64,000 nucleotides of DNA from Clostridia bacterium (GTDB lineage: Bacteria > Bacillota > Clostridia > UMGS1883): NCBI GenBank assembly GCA_045545295.1, contig JAZQAO010000036.1, positions 139,029 to 203,028 on the forward strand, written 5' to 3'. Shown here piece after piece: positions 1-50,533 of the stretch. The position numbers and the translations under genes are program-made. Below the pieces are notes generated by a model that did no database searches, was not told the DNA's origin, and was given only the letters and a program-made list of their open reading frames with translations. Positions within the stretch are counted from its first letter, which is position 1; each line of letters begins with the position of its first letter.

Positions 1-1
1 C

Positions 2-3000
2 AAGGGCGACCCGAACCTCAGAGTAATGGAAGACGGAAAAAACAACAAAGCTCTTTATGTTCCGGGTGATAACACGATAAACACACTAACATTTCCTCTT
101 GACGGACTTGAAGAGTTGTTTGTAATGAGCTTCAAACTTAAGTTTGAAGGCGGAAAAATCCCTCTGAGATTTACGTTTAATGACAAGGGAAACCAGGAAT
201 TTACTCCGTTTACGATAGATTCGAAAGGAAACATAGTTTTACATAACGGAAAGCTTGTCGGCGGAGTGAATGTGGGAAGATATACCGAAATCACCGTTAA
301 GTTCAACGCTCTCATAAAGCGTTACGATGTGATTGTTAACGGTCGTCTTGCGGCAAGCAACCACCTTTATACAGCAGATATTTCGGTTCCGACAACGCTT
401 ATTGTCAAAAGCTCTTTAGGTGAAGCGGATTCTGCACTTTATGTTGATGAGCTTGCTGTATATAACGGAACTGATGTCAGAAAGAATATCAAGTGGGGCT
501 CATACAACAGCGATATTCTTGAGTTTGCACCTGTTGATATGAAAAATCGTAAGCCTATGATTTTTGTTAACAACGATTTTAACACAAGAGGCAAGGCGTT
601 CAGCGGCATTAGTCCCTATAATAAGTCAAATGTCATTGAGTATATGCAGTATACTGAGGACAACGGATGTCTTCTTATGGACAAAACCTTAGCTGCAACA
701 GACCCCTTTATTGATATCGGGATTAAGGGTGCCGAAGCAATGCTCAACTTTGTACTTGAGGTTGATATTACAAGTGACGAGCTTGGTTCTACTCTGTACT
801 TATTTAATGTGAGAAGTGATACCACAGGCTGGGGACAGACATTCACAGTTTCGCCTGAAGGTGAAATCAAAAACCATCTCGGAACATCACTTGCAAAAAT
901 CGCAGAGGGTGAGTTTGTGCAGCTCGCAGCTGCATATAAGCTTGCACAGCAGACTTATGATGTATATGTAAATAAGAAAAAGGTACTTGAAAATGTACCG
1001 GTAGCAGCAAAGAATTTTGGCGTTCTTACAGATATCAGAATTCAGCAGATGCCCAATCAGGGTAACGGCAGATTTATTCTTGATAATCTGAGAGTTTACG
1101 AAGCAACCGAGCCGTATACCCTCACAGGGGAGGGAGAGGATCTGTATTCGGTTCTTCCTGACGACACAGACGATATCGCTAAATTAAGCGGTACGGTGGC
1201 ATTCCACGAGAATGCAAAATACCTTGTAGCAAAGAACCGCAAGACGGATATGCAGGCATACTCCTATCATGAGGGGAACTGTCTTATGGTTCCGGAAGAT
1301 GTATTCAGGATCGGTATGGGTCTTGGTGTTAAATATGATGAAAAAAGCGGCAGCATCTCTCTCGGCGCAGATATAAAAATGACGCTTGGTAAAACCGAGG
1401 CAACAGCACAGGGTAAGACTATTGAGCTTGATGCTGCGCCTGCCATAAAGAATGGCAAGGTATATCTTCCGGTAAAGTCAATAGTGGAAAAAGCACTTAG
1501 TAAACAGTATCTTCATCATAAAACAGGGCTTGTTGTTATTTCAAACACTCCCTTTAAGTACAGTGATGATGAAAGTGTGCTTAAAGCGCTTTCAACTTAT
1601 GTATTCTTCCCGCGTCTTTCTACTGATGAGATAATGGGACTTTATGAAAAGTCAGAATACAAAAACGTTCATCCCAGAATTATGGCAACGGCAGAGGATT
1701 TTGAAAGAATCAAAGAAATGTACAAAACCGATGCACGTGTTAAAGAATGGGTGGATAACGTTCTGGAAACTGCTGATAAGGCTCTTCCCACAACTCCCAA
1801 CGAAAGATGGTTTGATGCCGGAAACAAGCAGACACTTACCTACGTTCATATCGTGCTTGAAAGACTCACGTCGCTTTCATTTGCATGGAAGATAACAGGG
1901 GATACAAAGTATGCGGAGCGCGCATGGGTTGAAATGAAATCCGTTGCAGAGCTTCCTGACTGGAATCCGCAGCATTTCCTTGATGTAGGTGAAATGACCT
2001 ATGCTATGAGTATTGCTTACGACTGGTGCTACGATTTCCTTACAGAGGAACAACGTAAAATCACAGCCGATGCAATTCTCTATAACGGACTTGAAGCAGG
2101 CCGTGAACAGTATCAGGGCAGACCAATCGGTACAAACTACGTATTCCAGGCAATGAACTGGAACTCGGTATGTAACGGCGGTCTCATAGTTGGTGCTTGT
2201 GCAATATTTGACGAACACCCCGTTCAGGCTCGCTACACCATAAAAAACGGTCTTCGCAGTTTTGAGTATATGATACCTGAATTTGCTCCCTCCGGTGCAT
2301 GGGTAGAAGGTGTCGGTTACTGGGAATATACGGTCAAGTTTATGGGCTATATGATAGAGACTATGCAGAAAATACTTGGAACAGACTTTGATATGGCGCG
2401 TTACACCGGTATTGACAAAACAGCCGACTTTATATTAGGTATAAAAGGTAATGTGGGATATAACAACTTCCACGATGCAGGAGAAGGAAATGGTCTCAGC
2501 GTACAGCTTTTGTGGCTTGCAAGACACTTTAAGAGTTCTAAGATTGCCGATGCATATTTCTCAGTACTGGATATGCAGAATCTTAATGGCGGAATGTATG
2601 ACTGTTTGTGGTATGATCCAAGCCTTCTCGGTGACGGAAATGACAAATATCCTCTTGATGTAACAACCCCCGTGACGGAAACAGGTTCTATGCGTGAAAA
2701 CTGGGATGACCAGAACGGAATGTGGATTTCCTACAGTGGCGGTGCAAATCTAGTTAACCACTATCACCTTGACGAAGGTTCCTTTGTCCTTGATATGCTT
2801 GGCGAAAGATGGGCGCTCGATATGGGCGGTGGCGGATTCACCTATACTTACAGCGGCTCACGTAATGATATTTTCAGAGTGCGTCCCGAAAGTCATAACA
2901 CACTTGTAATTAACCCGGACGAATCTGCAGGACAGGAATTGACGGCATATTGCCCCATAATCCGTGCGGAAAGCAAGCCCAGGGGTGCAATTCAGGTCAT

Positions 3001-4126
3001 TGACCTTACAAGTGCATATTCTTCCGATGCTGATAAAGTACACCGTGGCTTTATGCTCAAGGATGACAGACGTACTGCAGTAATCCGTGACGAAATCGAG
3101 CTTCTTGAAAAGTCCGATGTTTACTGGTTTATGCACACGGAAGCAGAAGTAGAGCTTGTTTCATCCGATACTGCTATTCTTACAAAGAACGGCAAGAGGA
3201 TGCAGCTTAAGTTTATTGCAGAAAATGCAGAAGCAGCATTTACCGATACAAAGGTTGAGCCGTTCCCCACTTCACCTCAGATTGAGGGGCAGCCGGATAA
3301 CTCTCCTTATCAGCGAGTTGGAATCAAGCTTACAGGAGAAGGAGAAATCGCAGTATCTGTAAGAATAACGCCTGCTGAAGAATATTCAGCAGAAATTCCC
3401 TTCGAGTGCAGTGAAATTTCCGCTTGGACAATTCCTGACGGAGATATAACACCTCTTCCGGTGCATAAGGGAATATACGTTGACGGTCAGCTGATAAAGG
3501 GCTATAAGTCAAACGAAAACACTTATATACTGAAGTCTATCGACAAAAAAGCAAAAATTCCGGTTGTTACGATAGATGGCGGTGCATACGCAGTAGAAAA
3601 GATTTCAGAAGCGAAATCCTACGGCGAGAGCACAGTTTACAAACTTCTTGGAAATGGCGGAAAGTACACAACCGTCAAAGTGAATTTTGTTTATCAGGAG
3701 CTTGTACCCCTTCCTGATATAGAGGGAAGAATAAGACATATTCCTCTTGAACTTTATGCAAGCGCAAATCCTGAGAAGCATAATCCCGACAAGCACGTAA
3801 ACGATGATAATTTTGAAACCAAGTGGGCGGCAAGCGGTGTGCAAACACTGACCTTTGAATTCCACGAACCGAAAGTGATTGAAGCAATTGCGCTTAATAC
3901 TTCCCGTGCTGAAACGAGAAGCTACAAGTTCACAATCGAGGTTTCGGAAGACGGTGTAAATTATACCGAAATTTTCAAGGGCTCAACAAGAGTTGGCAAC
4001 AAAGGCTATGAAGTTATGGAAATTCCCTCTGTTACAACCAAGTACATACGCTACAAGGGTGACGGAAACAACGAAAACTCATGGAACACTATTAACGAGC
4101 TTGCCATCTTAGGCCCTGTACGCTGA
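2..4126 (+). CDS. Multidomain heparinase II/III-like polysaccharide lyase (5' end probably outside the window): LamG-like modules + Cu-amine-oxidase-N1-like stalk + heparinase II/III-like core + C-terminal F5/8 type C (discoidin) domain
   Basis: ORF track 26..4126. The frame has no stop back to nt 2, and Met26 has no signal peptide although the paralog at 12192 does. Motifs VHPRIMATAEDF, WNPQHFLDVGEM, NHYHLDEGSFVLDMLGERWALDMG and VRPESHNTLVINP are typical of the heparinase II/III family. KVYLPVKSIVEKAL resembles a Cu_amine_oxidN1 stalk. The tail DDNFETKWAA...INELAILG is discoidin-like. Confidence 0.75.
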   Translation, partial: KGDPNLRVMEDGKNNKALYVPGDNTINTLTFPLDGLEELFVMSFKLKFEGGKIPLRFTFNDKGNQEFTPFTIDSKGNIVLHNGKLVGGVNVGRYTEITVKFNALIKRYDVIVNGRLAASNHLYTADISVPTTLIVKSSLGEADSALYVDELAVYNGTDVRKNIKWGSYNSDILEFAPVDMKNRKPMIFVNNDFNTRGKAFSGISPYNKSNVIEYMQYTEDNGCLLMDKTLAATDPFIDIGIKGAEAMLNFVLEVDITSDELGSTLYLFNVRSDTTGWGQTFTVSPEGEIKNHLGTSLAKIAEGEFVQLAAAYKLAQQTYDVYVNKKKVLENVPVAAKNFGVLTDIRIQQMPNQGNGRFILDNLRVYEATEPYTLTGEGEDLYSVLPDDTDDIAKLSGTVAFHENAKYLVAKNRKTDMQAYSYHEGNCLMVPEDVFRIGMGLGVKYDEKSGSISLGADIKMTLGKTEATAQGKTIELDAAPAIKNGKVYLPVKSIVEKALSKQYLHHKTGLVVISNTPFKYSDDESVLKALSTYVFFPRLSTDEIMGLYEKSEYKNVHPRIMATAEDFERIKEMYKTDARVKEWVDNVLETADKALPTTPNERWFDAGNKQTLTYVHIVLERLTSLSFAWKITGDTKYAERAWVEMKSVAELPDWNPQHFLDVGEMTYAMSIAYDWCYDFLTEEQRKITADAILYNGLEAGREQYQGRPIGTNYVFQAMNWNSVCNGGLIVGACAIFDEHPVQARYTIKNGLRSFEYMIPEFAPSGAWVEGVGYWEYTVKFMGYMIETMQKILGTDFDMARYTGIDKTADFILGIKGNVGYNNFHDAGEGNGLSVQLLWLARHFKSSKIADAYFSVLDMQNLNGGMYDCLWYDPSLLGDGNDKYPLDVTTPVTETGSMRENWDDQNGMWISYSGGANLVNHYHLDEGSFVLDMLGERWALDMGGGGFTYTYSGSRNDIFRVRPESHNTLVINPDESAGQELTAYCPIIRAESKPRGAIQVIDLTSAYSSDADKVHRGFMLKDDRRTAVIRDEIELLEKSDVYWFMHTEAEVELVSSDTAILTKNGKRMQLKFIAENAEAAFTDTKVEPFPTSPQIEGQPDNSPYQRVGIKLTGEGEIAVSVRITPAEEYSAEIPFECSEISAWTIPDGDITPLPVHKGIYVDGQLIKGYKSNENTYILKSIDKKAKIPVVTIDGGAYAVEKISEAKSYGESTVYKLLGNGGKYTTVKVNFVYQELVPLPDIEGRIRHIPLELYASANPEKHNPDKHVNDDNFETKWAASGVQTLTFEFHEPKVIEAIALNTSRAETRSYKFTIEVSEDGVNYTEIFKGSTRVGNKGYEVMEIPSVTTKYIRYKGDGNNENSWNTINELAILGPVR

Positions 4127-4140
4127 ACGGAGGTAGAAAA

Positions 4141-5997
4141 ATGAAAAAGATAATTACATATTTACTGGTGCTTGTAATGTTGCTGGCATCATCCGCCTCT
4201 GTTTTGGCACAAACAACAATTTCAATTGTTAATCCTACAGGAGCAAGTGAAATATACGAGGGTGAAAGCCTGAATATCAAGGCAACTCTTTCGGAGAATT
4301 CTGCATACAAGGTTGCGTTTTACCTTAACGGAGATTGGGTAAGCACAGTTTATGCATCAGATACTCCTGAATGCGAAATTACAAACATTTGTGCAGGAAG
4401 TAACACAGTACGTGCCGATGCGCTCAGCGCATCGGGCACGGTGCTTGCAACAGATACCGTTACATTCAGCGTAAACGCAAATGAAGCACCTGTTGTCTCG
4501 GTAGCGGGACTTGACAGCGAAATTGATTTGTCTTTATCGGATACTGTATCTGCTTCTGTTACTGACAGTGAAGATAACTTCACCGAAGCGAAGGTTTTTC
4601 TTAACGGAATCGAGCTTGGAACTTATACGGAAACCAGCTTTGATATCGACATTTCGTCGGCAGCATCGGGAGAAAACGCTCTCGTAATAGAGGCGGTAGA
4701 TGCTTACGGCAAAAAAGGAATTTTTGAAAAGATTTTCACTGCTAATCAAGAGATTGCACAGACTCTTGTGGAGAATAATTTTGATGACTACACAAGCGGA
4801 ACCCCTGCGAAATTTACAAATTTTGTAACAAACAAGGGTGCAAGCTACAGTGCCGTAACCACAGAGGATGAAAGCTACGGAACAAGCCTTTGTCTTACAG
4901 CAAATACGATTGAGAATTCTCCTGACGTAGATGCTCATATCTATCTTGGTACAGATTCAGGCAAGCAGAAGTTTGTTGTAAAAACATCATATTATTTCCC
5001 CGGAAATGCCGACGGAAATTATGATGCAACTGCAACACTTTACTTCCGTGCGGGAAACGGCTCGTCAAGAGAACTTGTGGATTTTGACAAGAACGGAAAG
5101 CTTAAATGCTACGGTGAAGCAGGTATAAAGTCAACAACATACGACCTTAATACATGGTACGATATGGAGCTTTATATCGACACCCGAACAGGTATGTACG
5201 ATGTAATTCTCAACGGTACACCGGTTATTGAAGGATATACCAACGTACATATAAGAGACCTTGGAATTTCGGCATTCCGTTTCGGTATTTGTACAAGAAC
5301 AGGGCATAGCGGTGCACATCCGGCATCTGATGTAGGTGCAAAGGTGTATATGGATAACATATCTGTTGTTTCTATACTTGATGTGCCGAAAATTGAGAAA
5401 GTATATTCCGAAGGAAATACCGATACTGTTTCCGGTGGAGTGGGTGAAATTAAGGCAAAGCTTTCTGCGGTAATTGACGGAAGTGATATTTTGGAAAATG
5501 TTACTCTTATGAGTGAGTTTGGTGAAGTTAATATCACTGATGCAGTTTACGATTCTCAGAATTTAACCGTTAATTTTACAACAAATGCCGAAATTCAGCC
5601 CGGTGCAGATTACACACTTATTATTAAGGAAGGAACTAAAATGACAAGCACCCTTAAAACAGTGTGTGATATCCGCTGCGGATTTACTGCTGAAAATGGC
5701 GATTACAGCGTACCCGACGGAAAATTTGAATTTTCAGACGGGGAGATTACATTTAAAGGCTCGGTTGATAATAAGACATCACTGCCCCTTGAGGCAATTG
5801 CAGTTATGTATGTATGGCAGGAAAACAAGATTGTTTCGGCTTATACTACAGCAATAGTTGCGACAGAAGACAGAGCTACAGAATTTACTGTTACAGGAAA
5901 GCCCCTTGTAAAAGGCGAGAGAGCGAGCGTATATGTTTTTGATGCAGATACCCTTGAAATACCTGTAACAGTAAAAAACTATTCCTACAGTAATTAA
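4141..5997 (+). CDS. Secreted non-catalytic protein: signal peptide, Ig-like repeats and one LamG-like module
   Basis: RBS GGAGG precedes the ATG. N-terminus MKKIITYLLVLVMLLASSASVLAQ is a signal peptide. A beta-sandwich module ends in KVYMDNISVV. No catalytic motif was recognised. Confidence 0.6.
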   Translation: MKKIITYLLVLVMLLASSASVLAQTTISIVNPTGASEIYEGESLNIKATLSENSAYKVAFYLNGDWVSTVYASDTPECEITNICAGSNTVRADALSASGTVLATDTVTFSVNANEAPVVSVAGLDSEIDLSLSDTVSASVTDSEDNFTEAKVFLNGIELGTYTETSFDIDISSAASGENALVIEAVDAYGKKGIFEKIFTANQEIAQTLVENNFDDYTSGTPAKFTNFVTNKGASYSAVTTEDESYGTSLCLTANTIENSPDVDAHIYLGTDSGKQKFVVKTSYYFPGNADGNYDATATLYFRAGNGSSRELVDFDKNGKLKCYGEAGIKSTTYDLNTWYDMELYIDTRTGMYDVILNGTPVIEGYTNVHIRDLGISAFRFGICTRTGHSGAHPASDVGAKVYMDNISVVSILDVPKIEKVYSEGNTDTVSGGVGEIKAKLSAVIDGSDILENVTLMSEFGEVNITDAVYDSQNLTVNFTTNAEIQPGADYTLIIKEGTKMTSTLKTVCDIRCGFTAENGDYSVPDGKFEFSDGEITFKGSVDNKTSLPLEAIAVMYVWQENKIVSAYTTAIVATEDRATEFTVTGKPLVKGERASVYVFDADTLEIPVTVKNYSYSN

Positions 5998-6040
5998 ATT
6001 AATTTAATAAATAATTTTTAATTAAGAAAGGATGAAAAAA

Positions 6041-8119
6041 ATGGCAAAGACTAAAAAACTTTTATGTCTGGCAGTGGCAGTAGCGCTTGTTTCTTCGCTC
6101 TTCTGCTTGCCGGCAAGTGCTACCGCTAACTGGTCACATATCTTTGATATGTCAGCAATGATGGGTGCAGGTAGTTACGGCAGACACGGTTCAACAACTA
6201 CTACAGATTATAATGTAGCAGGAGTATATGGAAAGAGTACTGATGGTGTGTTGAAGCTCAACGCAACTGCAGAAACTGCGGACTACTATCTTGGATTGTC
6301 AGGAAGTAAAACGCTATATGCTTTTACTGCAAACTCCAAGACAGTAATTTCGTATGATGTAGCATTCGATTCATTGGATGCTACCGGAAACAATCACGTT
6401 TCCCTTATGCAGTTTGCCAATGCAACCGGTGGACAGATTGCTCAACTTAATTTAGTACAGATTACAAAGGGCGGTCAGGTAAATCCTTTGGACAAAGGTT
6501 ACATAGCGACTTCTGTAAAACCGGGTTGCTGGAATAACATTACTGCAGTTATTGACCTTGGCTCTGATTCAAAAACATATACTTGTACTATTTATCTCAA
6601 CGGGGTATCCGTACAAAGCACTACAGGAACACTTTCAACTGAAACTGCTTATGTAAGAGCATTGAGAATTTGTGACCGTACAGTTGGAGGCACAGTATAT
6701 ATCGACAATCTGAAGTTTGCTTCATATCCCGCTGCAGATACAGTTAACCTTAATTTCGTATCTCAAGCAGCAACTACTGATGCAGCTAAAGTCGCTGTGA
6801 ATACTGCAAACAATACTGTTGCTATTACCGATGCAGATTTGAAAGTTGCAGAATTTAAGAATATTACAACAGGCTTTGTTGTTCTTGGTGAAGATGGTGC
6901 GGTAGCAGCAGATGATGCTTCTATTTTAGATTCTGAAATTTATGCAGTATATGTAAATGATGTTAACTCATACTATGCACCCTACACAATTTCTGTAATT
7001 CCTCCTGTAATTACAGGTAGCACAACTGTATATCAGGAAATTATCAACAATGATACAAAAGAAATCAGAGTTGTTGATATGCCGAAACTTACAGTTGGCA
7101 CATTCAAGGATAATGTAACAAATACAGGTACACTGTCTATAACTAAAAACGGTGAGGCTGCTGCTGACAGTGATTTACTTAAGGATTGCACAGTTAACCT
7201 TACACTTGGCAGTTACTATGACTATACTTACACAGTTGTTACCGAGCGCAGCTATCTTCTTAAGAAAGAAACCTTTGACGGAACATTTACAACAAGAACA
7301 AGCGGTAACGGAACTGTTTATTCAGGAAATGGTTTCGTTTGGGCAGGAAATACAAACGGAATCAGCGGAGTAACATTTGGTGAACTGACAGGTCTCGGCG
7401 GCAAAGATGCAGACGATTCAAGTTTTGGCATTACTGTTAACGGAGCAAGTGCAGATCAAGAAATCTTTACTTATATTTCAAATCCGTATATAAACAGCAG
7501 CAAGGTAATCAACACCACTCATACTCTTGAAACAAAGATTTATCTGGATGATGTTGATGCGGCAGATTTCAGCGCAATTGATTTCTGTATTAACGGAAGA
7601 AACCTTCTTAAAATTTCCCCTGACGGAAGCATCAAGCACACAGACGGTACAGTTGCTACCGGTGTGAAGTGGACGGCAGGTGAATGGATTCCCGTTGCAG
7701 TAACATATCACAAGGCTACAAATATAATTGATGTTTATGTAGGCGGCAAAAAGATAGCTTGCACATGGAATCCTGCTCCTAACGGTTCAGATATTCGTTT
7801 CCGTCCGTGGGTAAAGAAGGATGCAGTTTTTACATTTGCAATGGACGATGTTAAAATCTACACAGACAGTCTTGCAAAAGTAAGATATGACGTTGACTCT
7901 GCAAACCGTACAGTTGTTGCAGATGCAACAGAAAACCTTGCAACTCTTCCCATTATTGCAGAGTATGACAGTACAGGAAAACTTCTTGGTGTAACTCTCG
8001 GAAAGAGTGAAAAAACAATTTCAAGAAATTACGCAGCAGATAGCAAGGTAAAGGTTATCCTTATTAACAGTCTTGCAGAGCTTGAAGCTATAACAGACGT
8101 ATACGAAGCAGTTAGATAA
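6041..8119 (+). CDS. Secreted LamG-repeat protein, paralog of the N-terminal two thirds of 8629..12171
   Basis: The ATG at 6041 is better spaced from RBS AGAAAGGA than the ATG at 6032. Signal peptide MAKTKKLLCLAVAVALVSSLFCLPASA. Modules end in TVYIDNLKFASY and FAMDDVKIYTD. Long colinear similarity to the next gene, e.g. ETFDGTFTTRTSGNGTVYSGN versus ETFDGTYSQRTSGNGKIYVGN. Confidence 0.65.
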   Translation: MAKTKKLLCLAVAVALVSSLFCLPASATANWSHIFDMSAMMGAGSYGRHGSTTTTDYNVAGVYGKSTDGVLKLNATAETADYYLGLSGSKTLYAFTANSKTVISYDVAFDSLDATGNNHVSLMQFANATGGQIAQLNLVQITKGGQVNPLDKGYIATSVKPGCWNNITAVIDLGSDSKTYTCTIYLNGVSVQSTTGTLSTETAYVRALRICDRTVGGTVYIDNLKFASYPAADTVNLNFVSQAATTDAAKVAVNTANNTVAITDADLKVAEFKNITTGFVVLGEDGAVAADDASILDSEIYAVYVNDVNSYYAPYTISVIPPVITGSTTVYQEIINNDTKEIRVVDMPKLTVGTFKDNVTNTGTLSITKNGEAAADSDLLKDCTVNLTLGSYYDYTYTVVTERSYLLKKETFDGTFTTRTSGNGTVYSGNGFVWAGNTNGISGVTFGELTGLGGKDADDSSFGITVNGASADQEIFTYISNPYINSSKVINTTHTLETKIYLDDVDAADFSAIDFCINGRNLLKISPDGSIKHTDGTVATGVKWTAGEWIPVAVTYHKATNIIDVYVGGKKIACTWNPAPNGSDIRFRPWVKKDAVFTFAMDDVKIYTDSLAKVRYDVDSANRTVVADATENLATLPIIAEYDSTGKLLGVTLGKSEKTISRNYAADSKVKVILINSLAELEAITDVYEAVR

Positions 8120-8128
8120 TTGGTAACA

Positions 8129-8172
8129 GGGGATGTAAAAAAAGTCCAGACTGCAAAAAGGCGATAATGATA
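8129..8172 (+). repeat. A-motif, copy 1 (stop-codon-proximal conserved ~40-mer)
   Basis: GGGGATGTAAAAAAAGTCCAGACTGCAAAAAGGCGATAATGATAC aligns by eye with 51890-51930 and 63259-63300. Confidence 0.5.
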
Positions 8173-8260
8173 CAAAATATAGATGGTTTGTAAATTATAA
8201 AATTATCCTATTTTGTTGAAAAATCTCATTTATTTCGATTTTTCTTCGTTTTTGTGCCTT

Positions 8261-8590
8261 TTTGCTACAAACAAACTTCGCCTCTCGGTCGTCGCAACTA
8301 ACGCTTTAGTCGTATTTGCTTTGCAAATATCGACGCAGTCGCTTGGTTGCTCCTCTCCCATTCAGAGCACGCTTACGCTACCACTCTGAACGGGGCCCGT
8401 TATGTAGGGTCTCCCAAAAAGTCCGAAGACTTTTTGGGAAAGAGACAAAACAAGATTGCAACCATAGTTTTCCTGCGGAAAACGTAATTGCAAACCTTGT
8501 TTTGGCGAGCCTTCGGGTAACCTGACAATGCCTGCACACAGGCATTGTCAGCTCAGTTTGTTCGTTCTGAAGCATTTTTTTCCTATCCCC
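8261..8590 (+). repeat. B-family intergenic repeat, long form (B1, 330 bp) filled with perfect hairpins
   Basis: Termini TTTGCTACAAACAAACTTCGCCTCTCGG ... CCTTCGGGTAACC ... CAGTTTGTTCGTTCTGAAGCATTTTTTTCCTATCCCC match the short copies. The interior contains at least 6 hairpins read directly (see findings). Confidence 0.7.
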
Positions 8591-8628
8591 TAAAAAGTAG
8601 GTGTAATTTTAAGGAAAGGAAGAATGAT

Positions 8629-11600
8629 ATGACAAAAATGAAAAAGCTTTTATGTCTGGCACTTGTGATTACGCTTCTTTCCTCGCTTATTTGTATATCG
8701 GCAAGTGCCGAGGTTACAGAAGCCGCAAAGGTTACCTTTGCAGGCGGTGCTTATGATTCAACAGCATCTATAGGTAATGCCGACCCGTCTTTTTTGGGTG
8801 GTGTTTACGGAAAGGCTGAGGACGATTACAGTGCAGCATTTTTAAATGCGGAAGGAGATAAATTCTTCTCCGTAGGTACAGGAGCAGACGGTCTTACAGT
8901 GGAAGAGGGCGGTAAGCTTAAGATTTCTTACGACCTTGCTTCTAACGATTTTCACTCTGCTTCAAAAGAGGGCGGCACAAGAGCAACTCATGGCCGTTAT
9001 GTAAGTATGAAGATTAACGATGGTGGTCGTTTCGTTATACTCGGACCTAACGGTTATACTCTTGATGACGGTACTACAAATCAGAGAGGAACATACAGCA
9101 AGCTTAATGACTATGCATGGAATAATATAACAGCAATTTTTGAGTTTAACGAAGACAACTCTGCGGCTGATTATAAGCTCTATGTAAACGGCAAGCAGGT
9201 TCATCGCAATGAAGCTTATGCAGTACGTCTCCCGAAGAAGGTAAATGATTTTCGTGTAGGTGGTGTGTTAATCAGCACTGATGAAGTTTACTACGATAAC
9301 TTTGTTGTAGAAGCATACGGAGCAGAAGATGAAGCTCCGGCAATTAACTTCACAACAGATGCAGCAGCACTTGAGGGTAACGAAGCTCTTGTAGATGCTA
9401 CTGAAAAAGTGATTAACATTTCAGATGTTGAAATGACAGTAGCAGATTTCAGAGCGGCTACAGAAAACTTTATGGTTCTTAACGAAACAGGTGCAGTAGC
9501 GGATGATAGCGACTATATCGCATATTCGACAGTTTATGCAGTTTGCAAGGACGGTGTAAACACATATTACGACAAGTATGAATTTTCAATTGAACCTCCT
9601 GTAATTGAGGCGACAACTAACGAATTCAAGGAAATTGTTAACAGTGATACAAAGGAAATCAGACTTGTTGACAGAATGGATTTAACTGTTGGCGAATTCC
9701 TTGCAAACACAGAAGGTGCTACAGTAACTCTTCTTGACGGAAACGAAGCTTCCGATGATACACTTCTTAAAAACTGTAGGGTAAGTGCGGTTCTCGGATC
9801 AATCTACGACATTGAATATACTCTTGTTACTGCACGCAGTTATGCTCTTGAAAATGAAACCTTTGACGGAACATACTCGCAGAGAACAAGCGGTAACGGA
9901 AAAATCTATGTGGGCAATGACATTCAATGGAACGGACAGACAAACGGAAAAGCCGGCGTTAAATTTGACGAAGCGATAGGTCTTGGCGGTAAAGACGACA
10001 CAGACAAGAGTCTGGCGCTCTCTGTAGAAAACGCAGGAAGTGCCGGTGACGTGTTTATGTACCTTAACAATCCTTACTCTTTGTCAAAAACAGAGCTTTC
10101 ATCTACATTTACTATGGAAGGAAAGCTTTTCATAGACGGTGTGGATGATACAGACATAAGTTCAATTGACGTTGTTGTAAACGGTAGAGTTGCCATTAAA
10201 CTTCTGCCTGACGGCAAGATAATGACAACTGACGGTACCGTTCTTGCTCCTGTAACATGGGAAAACGGAAAGTGGCTTCCTTTTGCAATAACACAGCATA
10301 AGGCTACCAACAGAATAAACGTTTTTGTTGGTGGTATTGACGCAAAATGCAGCTGGACTGCCGGACCTTTCCAGGCAGATATCCGTCTGCGTCCCATGTT
10401 GAAGGAAGGTGCATCTTTCACCTTTGCAGTTGACGATGTTAAGATGTACACAGACAGCATCGAAAAGGTTAAATATGATATTACCGAAGATGCAGTTACA
10501 ATGACGTCAACCTTTAACCTCAGCGGAGCTCCGATTCTTGCAGTATACGATGAAGACGGAAAGCTTAACGAAGTTAAAATCGGAAAAGATGCAAACACAG
10601 TAACAATAAACTATGAAGAAGGACAGAGTGTGAAGGCTTTCCTTTGGGGTAAAGACTCTAAGCTTGGTCCTTGGACAGAAAAAGTAACAGTCGTTGACCG
10701 GGGAAACCTGGTCAACGCACTTACTGCGTCTCTTTCAAAGGCTTTTACTGATAATATGGTTCTTCAGTGCGATATGCCTGTTACAGTATGGGGAACATCG
10801 GCTGATGCAAACGGTTCAACACTTGCTGTAACACTCGGCAATGAAACAAAAACAGCCTATGTAAACGACGGAGAGTGGGAAGTAGAATTCTCTGAAAGAG
10901 AAGCAAGTGCTGACGGTGTAAAACTGACAGTAGCTACAGCAAGCGGAACAGAAACAGTTAATAACATCGCTTTTGGTGATGTGTACTTTGTCGGCGGACA
11001 AAGTAACGCATATCTTCCTATGAATACAGTTGATACATATGCAGCGGATAAAGCAAGCTTTACAAAAAGTGACGAAATCCGCATTTTTCATCAGGTAGGT
11101 AACTATGCTTCAACCGTGCAGGAAAATCCCGTAGAGGGCAGTAAGTGGGAATATGCTACAGAAAGCACAATCGGAAAAATGTCCGCAATAGGTATGTACT
11201 TTGCAAAGACTCTTAAAGAAAACGGTGTAGATAAGCCTATCGGTCTTATTTCAGTAGCACGTAGCGGATCTTCTCTTCACTGGAATATTCCCTCAAGCAT
11301 TACCGCCAAGTATCAGATTGGCTATATGACAGATAAAACAAATCAGGCATACAACGCTCTTATGGCACCGGTGGAAAAATTCAGCGCAAAGGGTATGCTC
11401 TGGTATCAGGGTGAAAATGACTCTATAAAGGGTTCAACAGACATTATTTCTCAGTCAACAGAAATTTACAAAGATATGTTCAGCGATTTCCACTCATATC
11501 TTAAGCAAACAACTAAAAACAACGATTTCAAGATGTTTACGGTTCAGCTTTCAAGCCATCCTTCCGAACAAATGCTTGCCGGAAATCCTACAACAGGCTG

Positions 11601-12171
11601 GCAGCTTCCGTGGTTCCGTTCATATCAGTATGATATATCAAAGAATGTTGATGATGTTTATCTCATTCCCTCACAGGATTGCGGATATAGAAAAGATGAT
11701 GACGATGCGGCTCATCCCGACTATAAAAAACCCATTGGCGAGCGTCTTGCAAAGGCAGCTCTTTATGCAATTTACGGTACTGAAACAGAAAACAATGCTC
11801 TTTCTCCCATGCCCGACAGCATAAGCTATGATGGTAACACAGTTACAATTAAGTTCAAAAATGTTGCAGAGGGACTTAAGCTTGTAACAGGAGATGAGCT
11901 TAAAGGCTTTGAAATCATAGATGAAAACGGTAATGCAGTAGATGCCGTGACAATTATATCAGGAAAAGATACTGTAGTAATAACTAGCGATGCAGTAACA
12001 GAAGCCAAAGGTGTACGTTACGCATTTTACCGTGCAGCGGCAAATACCATTGCAAACCTTACCGATTCCAACGGATTGCCGTGTCCCACATTCACCCACG
12101 ATAAGGGTGCAGATAACGGCAGCAAATCACAGAAAATTGCGCCGCTTTCAGATGGTGTAATGTTAGATTAA
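8629..12171 (+). CDS. Secreted LamG-repeat protein fused to a C-terminal SASA/DUF303-type carbohydrate O-acetylesterase
   Basis: The track ORF starts at 8545, but those 28 codons lie in an intergenic repeat. The ATG at 8629 follows AAGGAAAGGAAG and gives signal peptide MTKMKKLLCLALVITLLSSLICISASA. The C-terminal region has DNMVLQCDMPVTVWG and VYFVGGQSNA (GQSN motif) plus WYQGEND, as in sialate O-acetylesterase-like enzymes. Confidence 0.7.
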   Translation: MTKMKKLLCLALVITLLSSLICISASAEVTEAAKVTFAGGAYDSTASIGNADPSFLGGVYGKAEDDYSAAFLNAEGDKFFSVGTGADGLTVEEGGKLKISYDLASNDFHSASKEGGTRATHGRYVSMKINDGGRFVILGPNGYTLDDGTTNQRGTYSKLNDYAWNNITAIFEFNEDNSAADYKLYVNGKQVHRNEAYAVRLPKKVNDFRVGGVLISTDEVYYDNFVVEAYGAEDEAPAINFTTDAAALEGNEALVDATEKVINISDVEMTVADFRAATENFMVLNETGAVADDSDYIAYSTVYAVCKDGVNTYYDKYEFSIEPPVIEATTNEFKEIVNSDTKEIRLVDRMDLTVGEFLANTEGATVTLLDGNEASDDTLLKNCRVSAVLGSIYDIEYTLVTARSYALENETFDGTYSQRTSGNGKIYVGNDIQWNGQTNGKAGVKFDEAIGLGGKDDTDKSLALSVENAGSAGDVFMYLNNPYSLSKTELSSTFTMEGKLFIDGVDDTDISSIDVVVNGRVAIKLLPDGKIMTTDGTVLAPVTWENGKWLPFAITQHKATNRINVFVGGIDAKCSWTAGPFQADIRLRPMLKEGASFTFAVDDVKMYTDSIEKVKYDITEDAVTMTSTFNLSGAPILAVYDEDGKLNEVKIGKDANTVTINYEEGQSVKAFLWGKDSKLGPWTEKVTVVDRGNLVNALTASLSKAFTDNMVLQCDMPVTVWGTSADANGSTLAVTLGNETKTAYVNDGEWEVEFSEREASADGVKLTVATASGTETVNNIAFGDVYFVGGQSNAYLPMNTVDTYAADKASFTKSDEIRIFHQVGNYASTVQENPVEGSKWEYATESTIGKMSAIGMYFAKTLKENGVDKPIGLISVARSGSSLHWNIPSSITAKYQIGYMTDKTNQAYNALMAPVEKFSAKGMLWYQGENDSIKGSTDIISQSTEIYKDMFSDFHSYLKQTTKNNDFKMFTVQLSSHPSEQMLAGNPTTGWQLPWFRSYQYDISKNVDDVYLIPSQDCGYRKDDDDAAHPDYKKPIGERLAKAALYAIYGTETENNALSPMPDSISYDGNTVTIKFKNVAEGLKLVTGDELKGFEIIDENGNAVDAVTIISGKDTVVITSDAVTEAKGVRYAFYRAAANTIANLTDSNGLPCPTFTHDKGADNGSKSQKIAPLSDGVMLD

Positions 12172-12191
12172 ACTTTTTACAGGAGGCAGTT

Positions 12192-15100
12192 ATGACAAAG
12201 AGAATTACAGCCTGTTTTATCAGTATAATAATGATAATCACATCATTGGTTATTTCTGCCTCTGATAAGCTTGTGCTGACGGAAAATCACGGAAGAATTA
12301 TACTCAGCACAGGCTTTGACAACAGTGATCTGACTTTTAACAGCAGTGTATTGTATATTGATTCAAAAGGGGAGTCTGTTTCTCTCAGAAAAAACGGATA
12401 TATAAATATCTGTAAAAACACAAAGGGAACGGACCCCTATTTTGACGTGGATTTATCGACTGTCAGCCCGGAGGGGATTGTTTTCAGTGCAGATTTTAAA
12501 ACAGGTGACAGCGCTATAGTTGCAGACCTTTTTAAAATGCGCTATTCGGACAATTCGATGGTCAGTCTTCTGTCTCTGGGTGAAGACAATATTGTGCGTT
12601 GTATGGGTAAAACCATCACTACTCTCAGTGCAGTAAAAATGACAAATATAGCGGTGTTTATTAAAAATAACGGATATTATGAAGTGTATGCGGATGATGA
12701 ACTTAAAACAAGCGGAAGCACCGGGAAAACTCTTTCGTGGCAGTTTATTCGCTGTCAGATTTTACCCGACAACCTTACAGGTTCACTGGGGATTGACAAT
12801 CTTAAAATATACAGTGCCGCAACTTTTGGCGAAGAAGCGGAAATCTATATTATAAACAATGATTTTAACGATGAAAAAACCTATAAAGACGGTTTTGTGC
12901 GCATTATCGCAGGAAGCGGAAACAGTATTTTATGTGAGGGTGAGTCCTCACTTGAAATAATCACGGAGGATAATACCAAAGACCCCTATATGGATGTATT
13001 TATACCGGATAATGACACGTTTTCTTCTCTTGTTTTTTCAGCTGATTTTACAGTGGAAAAGCTAGGGGCAAAAACAAACATTTTCCAGCTAAGAAATGAC
13101 AAAAAACAGTATCTGTCGGATGTTTTCATTACAGAGGCAGGAAACATTTATCAGCATTCAAATAAAATTGCAGAGGTTTCAGAAGGTGAGAAAGTAAACA
13201 TTGCACTTATCTACAATGTTACAGAATCATCCTATGATGTATATATAAACGAAGAAAAGAAAGTCTCAGGTGCAAAAAGCTCCTACAGCGGTGTAGTAGA
13301 AAGAATGAGAATACAGGTTCTGCCCAATTACGGAACGGGAACACTGTCAATAGACAATCTTAAAGTCTACGAAGGTGAAGAAATTTGTGACGTGGCAGAT
13401 ACGGGTAGTATTTCGGGATGGTCTGTACTTCCTGATGCCCGTACGGATAAAGTCCGCCTGGGTGAAGCAGTTGCCTATCATACTGCGGCAGACTATGCTT
13501 TTTATAACGGCGAAAAGCATCTTTTACCGGCGCGTCCTTATGTAAAAAACAAAGAAATATATATACCGGGCGAAATTGTTTTCCCCATCACAGGTGCAGT
13601 CGGAGAGGATATGCTTTTGAGCGAGCTGTGTGAAAAACACGGCAAGGAGTTTTTCTGTGACGATACAGGTCTTATCGTGATAACAGACGGGGAATTTCCC
13701 TATAAGGACAATAGAGCGGTGACAGACAGCCTTTCTACATATTTATTCTCGCATCGACCGGACAAGGCGGAGATAGAGAATTTATTTACGCAGTCGGGAA
13801 ATAATTCTGTTCATCCCAGAATAATGGCAACGCAGGAGGACTTTGATTATTTTAAACAGCAGAGAAATACTGACACATATATGTCAGACTGGATAGAAAA
13901 TATAATATATAGGGCAGATAATATGCTTTTAACTCTGCCCTGTGAGTACAAGCTTCAGGAATACAGACTTAATGCTGTTGTGAGTGTTGTACTTGAACGC
14001 ATTACTACACTCGGCTTTGCTTACCGTGTAACGGAGGATGTGGCTTACGCGCAGCGCGCTCTTAAAGAAATGGAAAAGGTAATGACCTATCCTGACTGGA
14101 ATTCCCAGCATTTCCTTGATACGGCGGAGCTTACTTTTGCTATGGCAATCGGCTATGACTGGTGCTATGAATATCTTGAAAAAGAAAGAAAAACGGATGA
14201 GGTAGTAAAGGCTATTGTTACGATGGGACTAAATGAAGGTGACAAGCAATACAGAGGGTACGTAAACGGAACAAGCTTTATTTTTCAGGATATGAACTGG
14301 AACAGTGTATGTAATGCCGGCATGACAGCAGGAGCTTTGGCAATTATGGAAAAAGAGCCTGAATTTTGTGCTGGAATAGTTAAAAATGCTATCCGCTCAA
14401 TTGAATATATGTTTCCTGCATTTTCGCCTGACGGAGGATGGCAGGAAGGAACGGGATACTGGGAATACGCATTCAGCTATCTTGTAAAAATTGCAGAATG
14501 TCTAAAGAGTGTTCTTGGTACGGATTTTGATATTCCTATGTTTACAGGCATAGAAAACTCCGTTATGTACAGAATTGCCATGCAGGGAAGCACCTACAGC
14601 AATAATTATCACGACAGCAACGAAACAAAAGATGTAAATGCAGAAATCCTGTGGGCAGGAAAATATTTTGACAGAACTGATTTCTCTGCATATTACCTTA
14701 GCAGAATCAAGAACACAGTTCAGAATGACGAATTGTGGAGATGTATTTATTATGACAGAAAAACATCTGTTAATCAGCCGTACAGCTTCCCCCGTGATAT
14801 GATGTTCAAAAACCTTGAAGCTGTATCTATGCGAAGCTCGTACACGGATGAAAATGCTACCTTCCTGAGCTTCCACGCAGGTGACAACAGTGTAAACCAC
14901 AGACAGTTCGATGCAGGCACTTTTGTTCTTGATATGATTGGCGAAAGGTGGGCAAGTGATTTGGGTACAGAGCCTCTTTCGTATCTCGGTGTGGCTTCAA
15001 AAAATCTTTACAGAGTGCGCCCCGAGGGACATAATACCCTGGTAATAAATCCTTCGGAGCAAATCGGACAGGAGTCAAAAACAGATTGCCCCGTTACAAA

Positions 15101-16508
15101 GCTTGTAAGTGAAGATAACGGAGCTTACGCAGTGACAGATTTAACAAGCGCTTATGTAAATCAGGCAGACAGTGTTGTCCGCGGGTTTATGCTTACAGAT
15201 GGCAGACGGACTGCTGTAATCCGTGATGAAATTGTTGTTAAAGAAAGCTCGCAAATATACTGGTTTATGCATACAGGGGCAGATATTTCTATTGTGGATA
15301 ATAACACAGCGATTCTTACCATAGGGAATAAATCAGTTCAGATGAAGGTTGTGGTAGAGGATGCAGATGCAGAGCTTTATTCTACTGATGCAACTTCCTT
15401 TGATACTACACAGAGTGAAAGCGGACAGGCAGACAATTCTGCTTACAGGAAAGTGGCGATTAAGCTTACAGGAAGCGGAGCTATGAGTATTTCTGTGCGT
15501 ATTACCCCACTTGATGAACCTTTTGCCCAGACAGAGTTTATACCAAAGGAAATTTCCTCTTGGAGTATAGATGAAGATTCATTTTCTCCTGAAGATTACT
15601 CAAGACAATATATAATTCACAGCGAGCTTTTCGACAATGAAATAAACTCCCCAACCAGCATATATACCCTATGGCAGCTGCGTAACGGAGACGGATCTGT
15701 GGGTGGAATGATACAGAGTAAAAAGAACTCAATCACCAGAGAAACTGCAATCGGTTCAAAAGGTGATGACGACGGCTGTATTGTTGTAAAAACTGAAAAT
15801 CTCACTACGCAGACAGGTATAGACCCCTTTGTACAGATAGAGTGTAATGATGCCACAAAAGGTAACGTAACCTTTGAATTTCAGGTTTACGCAGATGGTG
15901 AACAGACTGTTTACGTTCAGCTTATAGACAGTAACAGTGCCACAAAGCTTCTTATGGAAATGAAGCCTGACGGCATGGCATATATTTCAGGCATAAAAGC
16001 AGCACCTGCAGAGCGGGGTAAATGGCACGATGTTGCAATCACATTGCGTGGCAATAAGAAAACAGCAGATATTTATATTGATGGAAAGCTTGTAAAAACG
16101 GGAATCAGCGCAAGCACAGATGTTAAAAGAATAAAAATTATTTCTCTGTATCAGGCACCTGATGCCGGAGAAGCAAGAAATGGATTAACCGCCATTGACA
16201 ATGTAAGAGTGTATATGGGAGAAAAGGAAAATTATTACTATGCACTTTTTGCAAATGGCGAAAAAACAGAGGATGTAACAGTGGCTGATGAAATTTATGT
16301 CAATATTTCTGACGAAGCCGGACTAAAAGGGTATTTTGCGAGTGCATCCACTGACGGCAGTACCGAAGGCATAAATGTAATAAACCCCGGTGAAGATATG
16401 AGATTCAAACTTCAGCCGGGTAAAAAGGGAAAACTTCTTATATGGGATAAATATTCCCTATACCCTGAAAAGATGAGCATAACAACAGGAGGAAACAGCA
16501 ATGAGTAA
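12192..16508 (+). CDS. Secreted multidomain heparinase II/III-like polysaccharide lyase (LamG x2, stalk, lyase core, C-terminal LamG)
   Basis: RBS AGGAGG. Signal/anchor MTKRITACFISIIMIITSLVISAS. Modules end in LGIDNLKIYSA, LSIDNLKVYEG and TAIDNVRVYMG. Lyase motifs VHPRIMATQEDF, WNSQHFLDTAEL, NHRQFDAGTFVLDMIGERWASDLG and VRPEGHNTLVINP parallel those of ORF 26..4126. Confidence 0.75.
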   Translation: MTKRITACFISIIMIITSLVISASDKLVLTENHGRIILSTGFDNSDLTFNSSVLYIDSKGESVSLRKNGYINICKNTKGTDPYFDVDLSTVSPEGIVFSADFKTGDSAIVADLFKMRYSDNSMVSLLSLGEDNIVRCMGKTITTLSAVKMTNIAVFIKNNGYYEVYADDELKTSGSTGKTLSWQFIRCQILPDNLTGSLGIDNLKIYSAATFGEEAEIYIINNDFNDEKTYKDGFVRIIAGSGNSILCEGESSLEIITEDNTKDPYMDVFIPDNDTFSSLVFSADFTVEKLGAKTNIFQLRNDKKQYLSDVFITEAGNIYQHSNKIAEVSEGEKVNIALIYNVTESSYDVYINEEKKVSGAKSSYSGVVERMRIQVLPNYGTGTLSIDNLKVYEGEEICDVADTGSISGWSVLPDARTDKVRLGEAVAYHTAADYAFYNGEKHLLPARPYVKNKEIYIPGEIVFPITGAVGEDMLLSELCEKHGKEFFCDDTGLIVITDGEFPYKDNRAVTDSLSTYLFSHRPDKAEIENLFTQSGNNSVHPRIMATQEDFDYFKQQRNTDTYMSDWIENIIYRADNMLLTLPCEYKLQEYRLNAVVSVVLERITTLGFAYRVTEDVAYAQRALKEMEKVMTYPDWNSQHFLDTAELTFAMAIGYDWCYEYLEKERKTDEVVKAIVTMGLNEGDKQYRGYVNGTSFIFQDMNWNSVCNAGMTAGALAIMEKEPEFCAGIVKNAIRSIEYMFPAFSPDGGWQEGTGYWEYAFSYLVKIAECLKSVLGTDFDIPMFTGIENSVMYRIAMQGSTYSNNYHDSNETKDVNAEILWAGKYFDRTDFSAYYLSRIKNTVQNDELWRCIYYDRKTSVNQPYSFPRDMMFKNLEAVSMRSSYTDENATFLSFHAGDNSVNHRQFDAGTFVLDMIGERWASDLGTEPLSYLGVASKNLYRVRPEGHNTLVINPSEQIGQESKTDCPVTKLVSEDNGAYAVTDLTSAYVNQADSVVRGFMLTDGRRTAVIRDEIVVKESSQIYWFMHTGADISIVDNNTAILTIGNKSVQMKVVVEDADAELYSTDATSFDTTQSESGQADNSAYRKVAIKLTGSGAMSISVRITPLDEPFAQTEFIPKEISSWSIDEDSFSPEDYSRQYIIHSELFDNEINSPTSIYTLWQLRNGDGSVGGMIQSKKNSITRETAIGSKGDDDGCIVVKTENLTTQTGIDPFVQIECNDATKGNVTFEFQVYADGEQTVYVQLIDSNSATKLLMEMKPDGMAYISGIKAAPAERGKWHDVAITLRGNKKTADIYIDGKLVKTGISASTDVKRIKIISLYQAPDAGEARNGLTAIDNVRVYMGEKENYYYALFANGEKTEDVTVADEIYVNISDEAGLKGYFASASTDGSTEGINVINPGEDMRFKLQPGKKGKLLIWDKYSLYPEKMSITTGGNSNE

Positions 16509-37579: not shown

Positions 37580-38824
37580 GAGGTGTAATGTTATACGTTA
37601 TAACGAAGCAAAAGAAATCTATGCCCGTCTGGGTGTAAATGCAGAAAAAGCAATTGAGGTAGTTAAGAATTTCCCTATTTCCATGCACTGCTGGCAGGGA
37701 GATGACGTAATCGGCTTTGACAGCATCGGTTCTCTTACAGGTGGTATCCAGACAACCGGTAACTATCCCGGTCGTGCTACTACGCCCGAAGAATTAATGG
37801 CGGATATTGACAAGACAATGAGCCTTATTCCCGGTAAAAAGAAAATTAATGTTCATGCCTGCTATGCAGTATTTAACGGAAATAAAGCAGACAGAGATGC
37901 CCTTAAGCCTGAACACTTCAAGGCTTGGGTAGACTTTGCAAAGGAGAGAGGAATGGGACTTGACTTTAACCCCACATTCTTCTCACATGCAATGATAAAG
38001 GATAACCTTACTCTTTTTCCCCTGATGAAGAAGTGAGAAAGTTCTGGGTAGAACACGGCAAAAGATGTGTTGAAATATCACAGTACTTTGCAGAAGAAAC
38101 AGGTATTCCCTGTGTAATGAATATATGGATTCCCGACGGCTACAAGGATATTCCTGCAGACAGACTCGGACCGAGAGAAAGATTCAAGAAATCACTTGAC
38201 GAAATCCTTTCAATTCCTTACGACAAGGAAAAAGTGTATGTATGCCTTGAATCAAAGGTGTTCGGTATTGGCATGGAATCCTACACAGTAGGAAGTGCAG
38301 AATTCTGCCTTAACTATGTAAATCAGAAGGGTATCACACCCCTTATGGATAACGGTCATTATCATCCCACAGAAGTGGTATCCGATAAGATTGCAGCAAT
38401 GCTTCCCTTCCACGAAAAGATTGCTCTTCACGTAACACGTGGCGTAAGATGGGACAGTGACCACGTAGTTCTGTTTGATGACGAAACAAAGGAAATTGCC
38501 AAGGAAATCGTACACCACGATGCCCTTGACCGAGTGTTCATTGCAACAGACTACTTTGATGCATCAATAAACAGAATTTCAGCTTGGGTAACAGGTATGA
38601 GAAGTGTGCAGAAAGCACTGCTTAATGCGCTCCTTCAGCCTGTTGATACTCTTAAATCACTTCAGAATGAGGGAAGACTTACAGAGCTTATAGTGCTTCA
38701 GGAAGAACTCAAGACAGCACCCTTTGGTGATGTATGGGAAGAATATCTTAATCACGAAAATGTAAGCGCAAACTACATAGATGAAGTATTAAAGTATGAG
38801 AAAGAAGTTCTTTCTAGACGATAA
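37554..38824 (+). pseudogene. rhaA: L-rhamnose isomerase split into two frames (apparent 1-nt loss in a T5C4 tract at 38014-38022)
   Basis: ORFs 37554..38036 and 38033..38824 together are colinear with RhaA: PISMHCWQGDDV, GGIQTTGNYPG, NPTFFSH | FWVEHGKRC, MNIWIPDGYKD, HYHPTEVVSDKI, RWDSDHVV. Adding one base in the tract gives TLFSPDEEVRKFW. The N-terminal start is also ambiguous: the ATG at 37588 after AAGAGG is in a different frame. Confidence 0.8.
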
Positions 38825-41446: not shown

Positions 41447-41523
41447 TGGCGTGCTTGGAGGGATTCGAACCCCCGACCCTTTGGTTCGTAGCCAAATACT
41501 CTATCCAACTGAGCTACAAGCAC
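41447..41523 (-). tRNA. tRNA-Arg (anticodon ACG), CCA encoded
   Basis: Manual cloverleaf on the minus strand: GTGCTTG-TA-GCTC-AGTTGGATA-GAGT-A-TTTGG-CTACGAA-CCAAA-GGGTC-GGGGG-TTCGAAT-CCCTC-CAAGCAC-G-CCA. Confidence 0.85.
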
Positions 41524-50137: not shown

Positions 50138-50360
50138 ATAAAAGGGAAAATTTTCGCTCTTTATAAGATTATACAGCTTACTGTTCTTTGAGGCATATTT
50201 ATTAAACTTTCTTTCTTCCGGTACAGCAAAGCAATGCTGAATTTTAAACCCGCTTTCACTGTTGATAAGCCCGTTTTTCTCAAGTCCTTTAATACAGTCT
50301 TCGTTATATACATGAAAAAATTTGATAAAAAATCACTTCCTGAACGGTATTCATAAAAGT

Positions 50361-50415: not shown

Positions 50416-50473
50416 TATTTTCCCTTAAGGTAAAAAAGTGCATAAAAACGAAAATGTTTCGGTGTTGAAAATA

Positions 50474-50502: not shown

Positions 50503-50533
50503 AAATTTATATTATTCTGAAAGGATGATTTTT

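Follow-up and report, generated by a model that had tools for sequence, protein, structure and literature searches.

The window analysed here is a stretch of 64,000 nucleotides from Clostridia bacterium (contig JAZQAO010000036.1, positions 139,029 to 203,028, forward strand). It opens with five co-directional + strand open reading frames (ORFs), O1 to O5, whose products share ten copies of a LamG-type beta-sandwich module. The five proteins probably constitute the extracellular front end of a Gram-positive gene cluster for polysaccharide utilisation in an uncultured gut bacterium of the Clostridia (Oscillospiraceae-like), in which the modules are attached to predicted polysaccharide lyases, a predicted esterase and two non-catalytic partners. 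This is not a new type of machinery, since multimodular carbohydrate-active enzymes (CAZymes) in a utilisation locus are a known kind.

The array comprises O1 (1-4126), O2 (4141-5997), O3 (6032-8119, or from 6041 as placed by the gene caller), O4 (8629-12171) and O5 (12192-16508), together 5,333 aa, and was surveyed along with the 31 other window proteins (14,415 aa). O1 is truncated at its 5′ end by the window edge: no in-frame stop occurs upstream of nt 26, and because a 99% identical ortholog in a contig from a Clostridia metagenome-assembled genome (MAG; contig L001, 3827-8086) is 1,419 aa long and includes a signal peptide, about 53 O1 residues must be missing from the window. O1 and O5 are of similar length (~1,420-1,440 aa); O2 (618 aa) and O3 (692-695 aa) are small for the term giants, which the preliminary description of this DNA applied to all five. 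The likeliest start codon of O4 is ATG 8629, the one that description had assumed, rather than TTG 8545, and it is preceded by a ribosome-binding site, AAGGAAAGGAAG. By-eye inspection finds typical Sec signal peptides at the starts of O2 to O5, each showing an n-region rich in K/R, then a hydrophobic core and an A-x-A-like site.

Ten LamG-type modules in five adjacent proteins

The preliminary description quoted ten recurring peptides and proposed at least 10 copies of a beta-sandwich module. All ten peptides are present in the + strand translations, at nt 440 and 1076 (O1), 5347 (O2), 6698 and 7838 (O3), 9289 and 10426 (O4), and 12789, 13347 and 16191 (O5). O1 to O5 contain 6 matches to the strict pattern h-D-[ND]-h-x-h-Y versus 0.19 +/- 0.43 in 2,000 shuffles, an enrichment of about 30-fold, and the 31 other window proteins contain none; a looser form gives 11 matches versus 1.4 in shuffles and 3 in those other proteins. 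A hidden Markov model (HMM) trained on 462 instances of the module from other organisms, with the window proteins and their close orthologs left out, identifies exactly ten modules across the five proteins, with independent E-values (i-E) of 1.6e-11 to 1.9e-31 over ~170 positions each, and nothing further of significance either in O1 to O5 or in the 31 others. The recurrent module thus stands, and its count is ten rather than an open-ended minimum. Across 482 instances the terminal strand follows the consensus [LFV]-Y-[IVL]-D(97%)-N/D(91%)-[VIL]-[RK]-[VI]-Y(74%)-x-G; the modules measure ~180-200 aa and usually begin with an (E/N)-x-F-(D/E/N) strand, and their invariant residues are confined to core and terminal-strand positions.

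The two lyase-type proteins carry half of the modules. In O1, module a (29-481, ending YVDELAVY, i-E 1.1e-20) aligns with module a of O5, its N-terminal strands lying outside the window, and module b (551-1111, ending ILDNLRVY, i-E 1.9e-31) is linked by BLASTP to O5c (2e-5) and to O3b (8e-6). O5 contributes modules a (12291-12821, ending GIDNLKIY, i-E 8.5e-23), b (12834-13388, ending SIDNLKVY, i-E 1e-29) and c (15594-16229, ending AIDNVRVY, i-E 5.8e-27), the last of which matches Laminin_G_3 with E 1.5e-9 and 38.6 bits, above the family's gathering score of 27.6 bits. The single module of O2 (O2a, 4744-5373, ending YMDNISVV, i-E 1.6e-21) matches Sialidase-like_CBM with E 1.3e-4 and 22.4 bits, under the cut-off of 27. 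O3 carries module a (6200-6727, ending YIDNLKFA, i-E 9.5e-17), with a Laminin_G_3 match of E 2.3e-4 that at 21.8 bits stays below the gathering score, and module b (7268-7882, ending AMDDVKIY, i-E 5.3e-19), which passes it at 28.1 bits. The corresponding modules of O4 are a (8851-9318, ending YYDNFVVE, i-E 1.6e-11; Laminin_G_3 E 1.1e-3 and 19.5 bits, again below) and b (9853-10470, ending AVDDVKMY, i-E 6.6e-14), the latter a paralog of O3b. In all, Pfam parsing recovers Laminin_G_3 or Sialidase-like_CBM in five of the ten modules, two of them above the gathering score.

Comparison of profiles by hhalign joins the remaining modules to these. O1a/O5a (PLa), O1b/O5b (PLb), O5c (PLc) and O3b/O4b (E3b) form a tight group (PLa-PLb 98%, PLb-PLc 96%, E3b-PLc 97.5%, PLb-E3b 95%), and O3a/O4a (E3a) and O2a are more distant (73-76%). 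Searched against the Protein Data Bank (PDB), a 25-sequence module profile finds an internal domain of BT1020 (5mqr, E 4.7e-9), domain 4 of AbnA (5hon, 1.4e-6), a legume lectin (7e-4) and the NanC lectin domain (6e-3), with laminin alpha2 LG also among the matches. Judged by these alignments and by the external HMM, the ten modules share homology with each other and with members of the family in other proteins.

Structure prediction supports a concanavalin A-like/LamG-type beta-jelly-roll for the modules, the fold that the preliminary description had proposed from the motif. The AlphaFold model of O3 (predicted local distance difference test, pLDDT, 76) and that of O5 residues 1-420 (mean pLDDT 82) consist of all-beta modules in which the motif is the last strand in four of four cases: E218-230 in O3a, E596-609 in O3b, E197-208 in O5a and E383-394 in O5b, where it lies inside blocks with pLDDT above 90. 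For the modules of O1, O2 and O4 the fold is assigned by homology to these modelled ones. Foldseek returns matches to the module models at probability 1.0 (1kit, 1f9k, 1qnw, 5hon, 4xup, 5xau, 2jd4, 6cw1), comprising the lectin wings of V. cholerae sialidase, botulinum Hc/NTNHA jelly rolls, legume lectins, AbnA domain 4, tandem CBM22, galectin-8 and laminin/neurexin LG domains; the surface glycan-binding protein B of B. thetaiotaomicron (SGBP-B, 7KWB) is also among them. Template modelling (TM) scores against single-domain lectins, normalised to the target, are 0.43-0.49.

With their established relatives in Laminin_G_3 (PF13385) and Sialidase-like_CBM (PF22585), and in 5HON, 5MQR and 1KIT, the modules share the ~180-200-aa beta-jelly-roll, a W...(Y)DVY(V)NG strand pair, the terminal hD(N/D)h(R/K)hY strand, and attachment to secreted glycan-degrading enzymes. 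They differ in that just two of ten reach a Pfam gathering score and in forming a large group of their own: among 1.84 billion proteins the module is found in 4,367 cluster representatives at E<=1e-3 and in 814 at E<=1e-10. Architectures were read in 156 proteins (the top 150 representatives plus those found earlier). The lyase architecture of O1 and O5 is common to 58 of the 156; others carry 2-10 copies on PL8 lyases or on GDSL or SASA esterases, or consist of modules alone. Because the module is widespread across PL35, PL8, SASA and GDSL enzymes, the cell-surface glycan capture apparatus that the preliminary description could not assign to a described system reduces to an accessory module borne by multimodular CAZymes of an ordinary kind. 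Nothing relevant emerged when the literature was searched for lyases with Laminin_G_3 modules.

Enzyme cores and the predicted utilisation pathway

The modules flank lyase and esterase cores, as the preliminary description had it, and the catalytic families can now be named from Pfam and from PL35 structure-sequence matches. The core of O5 (13803-15398) matches PL35 enzymes over ~530 residues (PDB 8KHW E 9e-67, 8KHV 1e-59, 9O3Q 'PL35 chondroitinase' 2e-46). The core of O1 (1655-3250) combines DUF4962/DSE-like_N with Hepar_II_III_C and contains the motifs MNWNSVCNGG, GYWEY and NHYHLDEGSF; its PL35 assignment follows from the same Pfam pair and from its paralogy to O5 (36% identity over ~1,000 aa). 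In the PL35 enzyme GAGase II the catalytic residues are Tyr246, His401 and Asn192, and the Mn2+ ligands His403, Asp405, Asp421 and His457 (PMC12088678). In the O5 alignment that published numbering equals the chain index +22, and equivalents of the catalytic three are kept in O5 (GYWEY, NH.., MNWN) and, by direct reading, in O1; ligands Asp405, Asp421 and His457 are also kept, and His403 is kept in O1 (NHYHLD). O1 and O5 are accordingly classed as PL35-type lyases and O4 as a SASA-type esterase, their activities being predicted from sequence. The SASA domain of O4 (10978-11763; Pfam E 2.8e-18, 66.8 bits versus a cut-off of 24.8) carries the serine motif GGQSNA, and the O4 translation reads VGGQSNAY, which contains the GQSN nucleophile motif.

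In order, O1 comprises modules a and b, a Cu_amine_oxidN1 domain (1235-1492, Pfam E 4.7e-12), the lyase core and an F5/8 type C domain (discoidin, CBM32-like; 3758-4102, Pfam E 1e-11); O5 runs from a signal peptide through modules a and b, a linker domain, the lyase core and module c to a C-terminal domain. Both share with the characterised PL35 lyases of glycosaminoglycans (GAGs), namely 8KHV (GAGase II), 8KHW (GAGase VII) and 9O3Q (B. caccae chondroitinase), an (alpha/alpha)6 toroid plus beta-sheet core (E 1e-46 to 1e-67 for the O5 core) and the conserved catalytic residues, and a GH88 gene stands next door. The characterised enzymes come from Bacteroidota and consist of one core in ~600 aa, whereas O1 and O5 carry two N-terminal LamG-like modules, a Cu_amine_oxidN1-type linker, and a C-terminal F5/8-C domain or third module.

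The other two secreted proteins have no recognisable catalytic domain, in agreement with the preliminary description and as judged from Pfam and, for O3, from the structure model. O2 consists of a signal peptide, Ig-like (Big_7) domains, module O2a, Big_5 and a C-terminal beta domain. O3 consists of a signal peptide, module a, two ~85-aa alpha/beta repeats (6737-7246; pLDDT 81-95, no Pfam family, with equivalents in O4), module b and a C-terminal domain of ~80 aa. These architectures leave no room in either protein for an unrecognised catalytic domain. O3 is paralogous to O4 residues 1-700 (39% identity), the N-terminal half of the secreted O4 esterase being O3-like. Among the five related contigs described below, O3 occurs in the arrays of L001 and L004/L005, as it does in the window, but not in those of L003 and L006; it is therefore a lineage-specific partial duplicate of the O4 N-terminus.

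Downstream, a run of co-directional genes (16501-39895) encodes GH88, amidohydrolase, GH20, EamA, GH2-like, YgjV, S9 esterase, GH2, GH43 with F5/8-C, GH106-like, GH94-like, GH95, RhaA and SDR proteins, none of which has a signal peptide. A secreted depolymerising front end followed by a cytoplasmic back end is the usual split in loci of this kind, and a GH88 adjoining the lyases fits the products of beta-elimination. The presence of rhamnose, fucose and hexosaminidase genes suggests that the target is an acidic, acetylated heteropolysaccharide and not simply a GAG.

On the utilisation-locus reading, the O1 and O5 lyases and the O4 O-acetyl esterase would be exported by Sec signal peptides, each with two or three modules, and the modules, as carbohydrate-binding and substrate-targeting elements, would keep the enzymes on a heteropolysaccharide that contains uronic acid and is O-acetylated. 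For O2 and O3 the most likely role would be that of glycan-binding proteins, either free or loosely associated with the wall. Acetyl groups would be taken off by the esterase, and the lyases would cut by beta-elimination; the resulting unsaturated oligosaccharides would be imported and dismantled by the cytoplasmic GH88, GH20, GH2, GH95, GH106-like and GH43 enzymes, with RhaA leading rhamnose into metabolism. Such a scheme resembles Gram-positive polysaccharide utilisation loci (PULs) and multimodular extracellular CAZymes, in which genes for secreted enzymes with tandem binding modules precede those for cytoplasmic exo-glycosidases and sugar catabolism, and AraC-type regulators lie close by. 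The surface glycan-binding proteins (SGBPs) of Bacteroidota PULs offer a functional analogue of O2 and O3, as non-catalytic multi-beta-domain binders (binding being a prediction here) encoded inside the locus, with a Foldseek match to SGBP-B and with fast sequence turnover. The window differs from these in having no SusC/SusD, lipoprotein signal, ABC transporter or solute-binding protein.

Several observations count against this scheme or restrict it. Carbohydrate binding by the module subfamily is predicted only, and this analysis yielded no CAZy carbohydrate-binding module (CBM) assignment for it; half of the modules (O1a, O1b, O4b, O5a and O5b) have no direct Pfam match and are linked to the others via profiles only. 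The signal peptides were called by inspection alone. In O5 the Mn ligand His403 is replaced by Gln (NHRQFDAGTF, window 14800-14830), a further departure from the characterised PL35 lyases that could mean altered metal dependence or altered activity. Those enzymes cut GAGs, and the rhamnose, fucose and GH43 genes around O1 to O5 point elsewhere and are unlike a classic GAG locus. The import step, finally, is unsupported in the window, which contains no oligosaccharide ABC transporter or solute-binding protein and, as membrane proteins, only EamA and YgjV.

Gene order, sequence turnover and alternative readings

Beyond the window, four distinct arrays were found on five related contigs (L001, L003, L004/L005 and L006). 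The N-terminal family to which O3 and O4 belong is rare, with 8 proteins among 5.8 billion; of 185,579 species genomes, 2 carry it, one a Clostridia MAG and the other that of an uncultured Oscillospiraceae. In L001, L003, L004 and L006 the gene order is kept as SLH protein, 904-906-aa protein, O1, O2, (O3), O4, O5, GH88 and amidohydrolase, and L005 holds only the portion from O3 to amidohydrolase. The two genes that always precede O1 in these relatives (L001 1-3808, L003 78-3740, L004 1-3746, L006 1-3745) correspond to sequence outside the window. The product of the first is ~555 aa long and has three SLH repeats at its C-terminus; that of the second is a secreted protein of 904-906 aa, with no Pfam match and 57-78% identity between contigs; no LamG-like module was found in either.

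Conservation along the array is uneven. The window DNA matches L001 at 99% identity in nt 1-6123 and at 94-98% from nt 6971 on, with no detectable similarity in nt 6124-6970, the segment of O3 that encodes the mature N-terminus, module a and repeat 1. The identity matrix of the O3 a-modules conflicts with that of the rest of the protein: O3a of the window is 54% identical to the a-module of the distant O4-type protein P0008 and 24-26% identical to its own orthologs, whose b-modules reach 90-94%, and O3a of P0002 and P0004 is 79-84% identical to O4a of L003. O2 shows 51-59% identity to its orthologs, with flanking genes at 86-95%; against L004 it stands at 51% along its whole length and O1a at 62-67%, compared with 95% for GH88, 93% for O5 and 91% for O4. 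Overall, O2 and the first module of O3 diverge by 50-75% between strains whose flanking genes are 93-100% identical. In this handful of sequences turnover or recombination seems much faster in the non-catalytic proteins and outermost modules than in the catalytic cores, and O3-type and O4-type proteins appear to have traded a-modules. Fast turnover is the behaviour expected of specificity-determining or exposed binding modules.

These patterns admit a reading in which the locus encodes a diversifying glycan-recognition set: O2 and the first module of O3 (plus repeat 1) would serve as exchangeable cassettes, with a-modules swapped across lineages, and would re-target the lyase and esterase battery at strain level to variable polysaccharides such as the capsules of other microbes or host glycans, possibly on a surface complex nucleated by the SLH and 904-aa proteins. 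We regard this as a speculative extension with a low probability of being correct. Equally doubtful is the proposal that O1 to O5 together with the upstream SLH and 904-aa proteins make up a cell-surface multi-protein complex, a cohesin-independent version of the suggested glycan capture apparatus in which the LamG-like modules or Cu_amine_oxidN1 would be protein-protein assembly modules. The order of the SLH gene, the 904-906-aa gene and O1 to O5 is indeed kept in four contigs, Cu_amine_oxidN1, which is common in Firmicute envelope proteins, is present on O1 and its relatives, and LG/LNS domains mediate protein-protein contacts in eukaryotes. However, the check for cell-wall anchoring came back empty: none of the five proteins has an SLH match, cohesin or dockerin (Pfam, the last two at E<=0.01), or an LPXTG-like motif near its C-terminus, and the C-termini are hydrophilic. 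The upstream proteins lack the module, thousands of unrelated enzyme architectures have the module but no such neighbourhood, and what argues for assembly comes down to adjacency, the SLH gene two genes upstream in four related contigs being the sole hint of surface attachment. A cellulosome, which likewise occurs in Clostridia and is likewise encoded by adjacent genes for secreted multimodular enzymes and non-catalytic proteins (here with an SLH protein nearby in relatives), differs by its cohesins and dockerins and by a scaffoldin-like repeat of interaction modules, which the array lacks; a cellulosome-type assembly was rejected because no cohesin or dockerin Pfam match was detected in O1 to O5.

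It is still less probable that certain modules, above all those of O2 and O3, are catalytic themselves, as cryptic glycanases or lyases. The fold also houses GH16, GH7, GH11/12 and PL7/13/14/18/20 enzymes, O2a matches Polysacc_lyase PF14099 weakly (E 0.033), the module profile matches glucuronan lyase 2zzj weakly (E 0.12), and GH16 O-glycanases are among the Foldseek matches of the O3 model. Such matches to catalytic families fall far below significance, however, and those that are significant are to non-catalytic lectin or CBM-like domains; the restriction of invariant residues to the core and terminal strand is what a structural signature predicts, and O3a is freely swapped for alleles just 24% identical, unlike a conserved active site. 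The notion that the motif recurs merely by chance or through composition, in beta-rich segments of no common origin, has only the motif's shortness to recommend it, and its probability is negligible; it is already refuted by the shuffles, the hhalign links and the external HMM, which places full-length modules at all ten sites, and the models put the motif in the equivalent last strand every time. We therefore retain the utilisation-locus reading, with the ten modules as predicted binding elements of secreted CAZymes.

Surrounding sequence and implications

Some further features of the window are recorded here. The O3-O4 spacer (8120-8628, 509 bp) is the longest intergenic gap of the array. 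It contains two perfect hairpins, CCCAAAAAGTC-CGAA-GACTTTTTGGG at 8413-8438 and CAATGCCTG-CACA-CAGGCATTG near 8530, and similarity to L001 breaks at 8288-8508; Rfam gave no match across the array, spacer included. A pseudogenised esterase remnant after O3 was considered and dropped, tblastn of the spacer having returned none. RhaA (37554-38824) is interrupted: its sequence falls into two ORFs that overlap, 37554-38036 (profile positions 6-146) and 38033-38824 (positions 153-417), the result of either a frameshift, which would make it a possible pseudogene, or an error of assembly. An IS3-family transposase (rve/HTH_21, 40168-41022) and a tRNA gene (41450-41523), both on the minus strand, mark where the co-directional CAZyme block ends. 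AraC-type regulators are encoded at 46863-47657 and 61269-62054, and the interval between them holds six large ORFs, mostly on the minus strand (48590-61199; 515, 496, 512, 533, 652 and 665 aa), with no Pfam or NCBIfam match.

Taken as a Gram-positive utilisation locus, the array represents a heavily decorated branch of the recently defined PL35 lyases. Its hD(N/D)h(R/K)hY terminal strand delineates a large subfamily of LamG-like accessory modules, with ~4,400 cluster representatives, which is a reasonable candidate for a new CBM family. The cassette-like hypervariability of O2 and O3 may in turn provide a handle on how uncultured gut Clostridia diversify glycan recognition.

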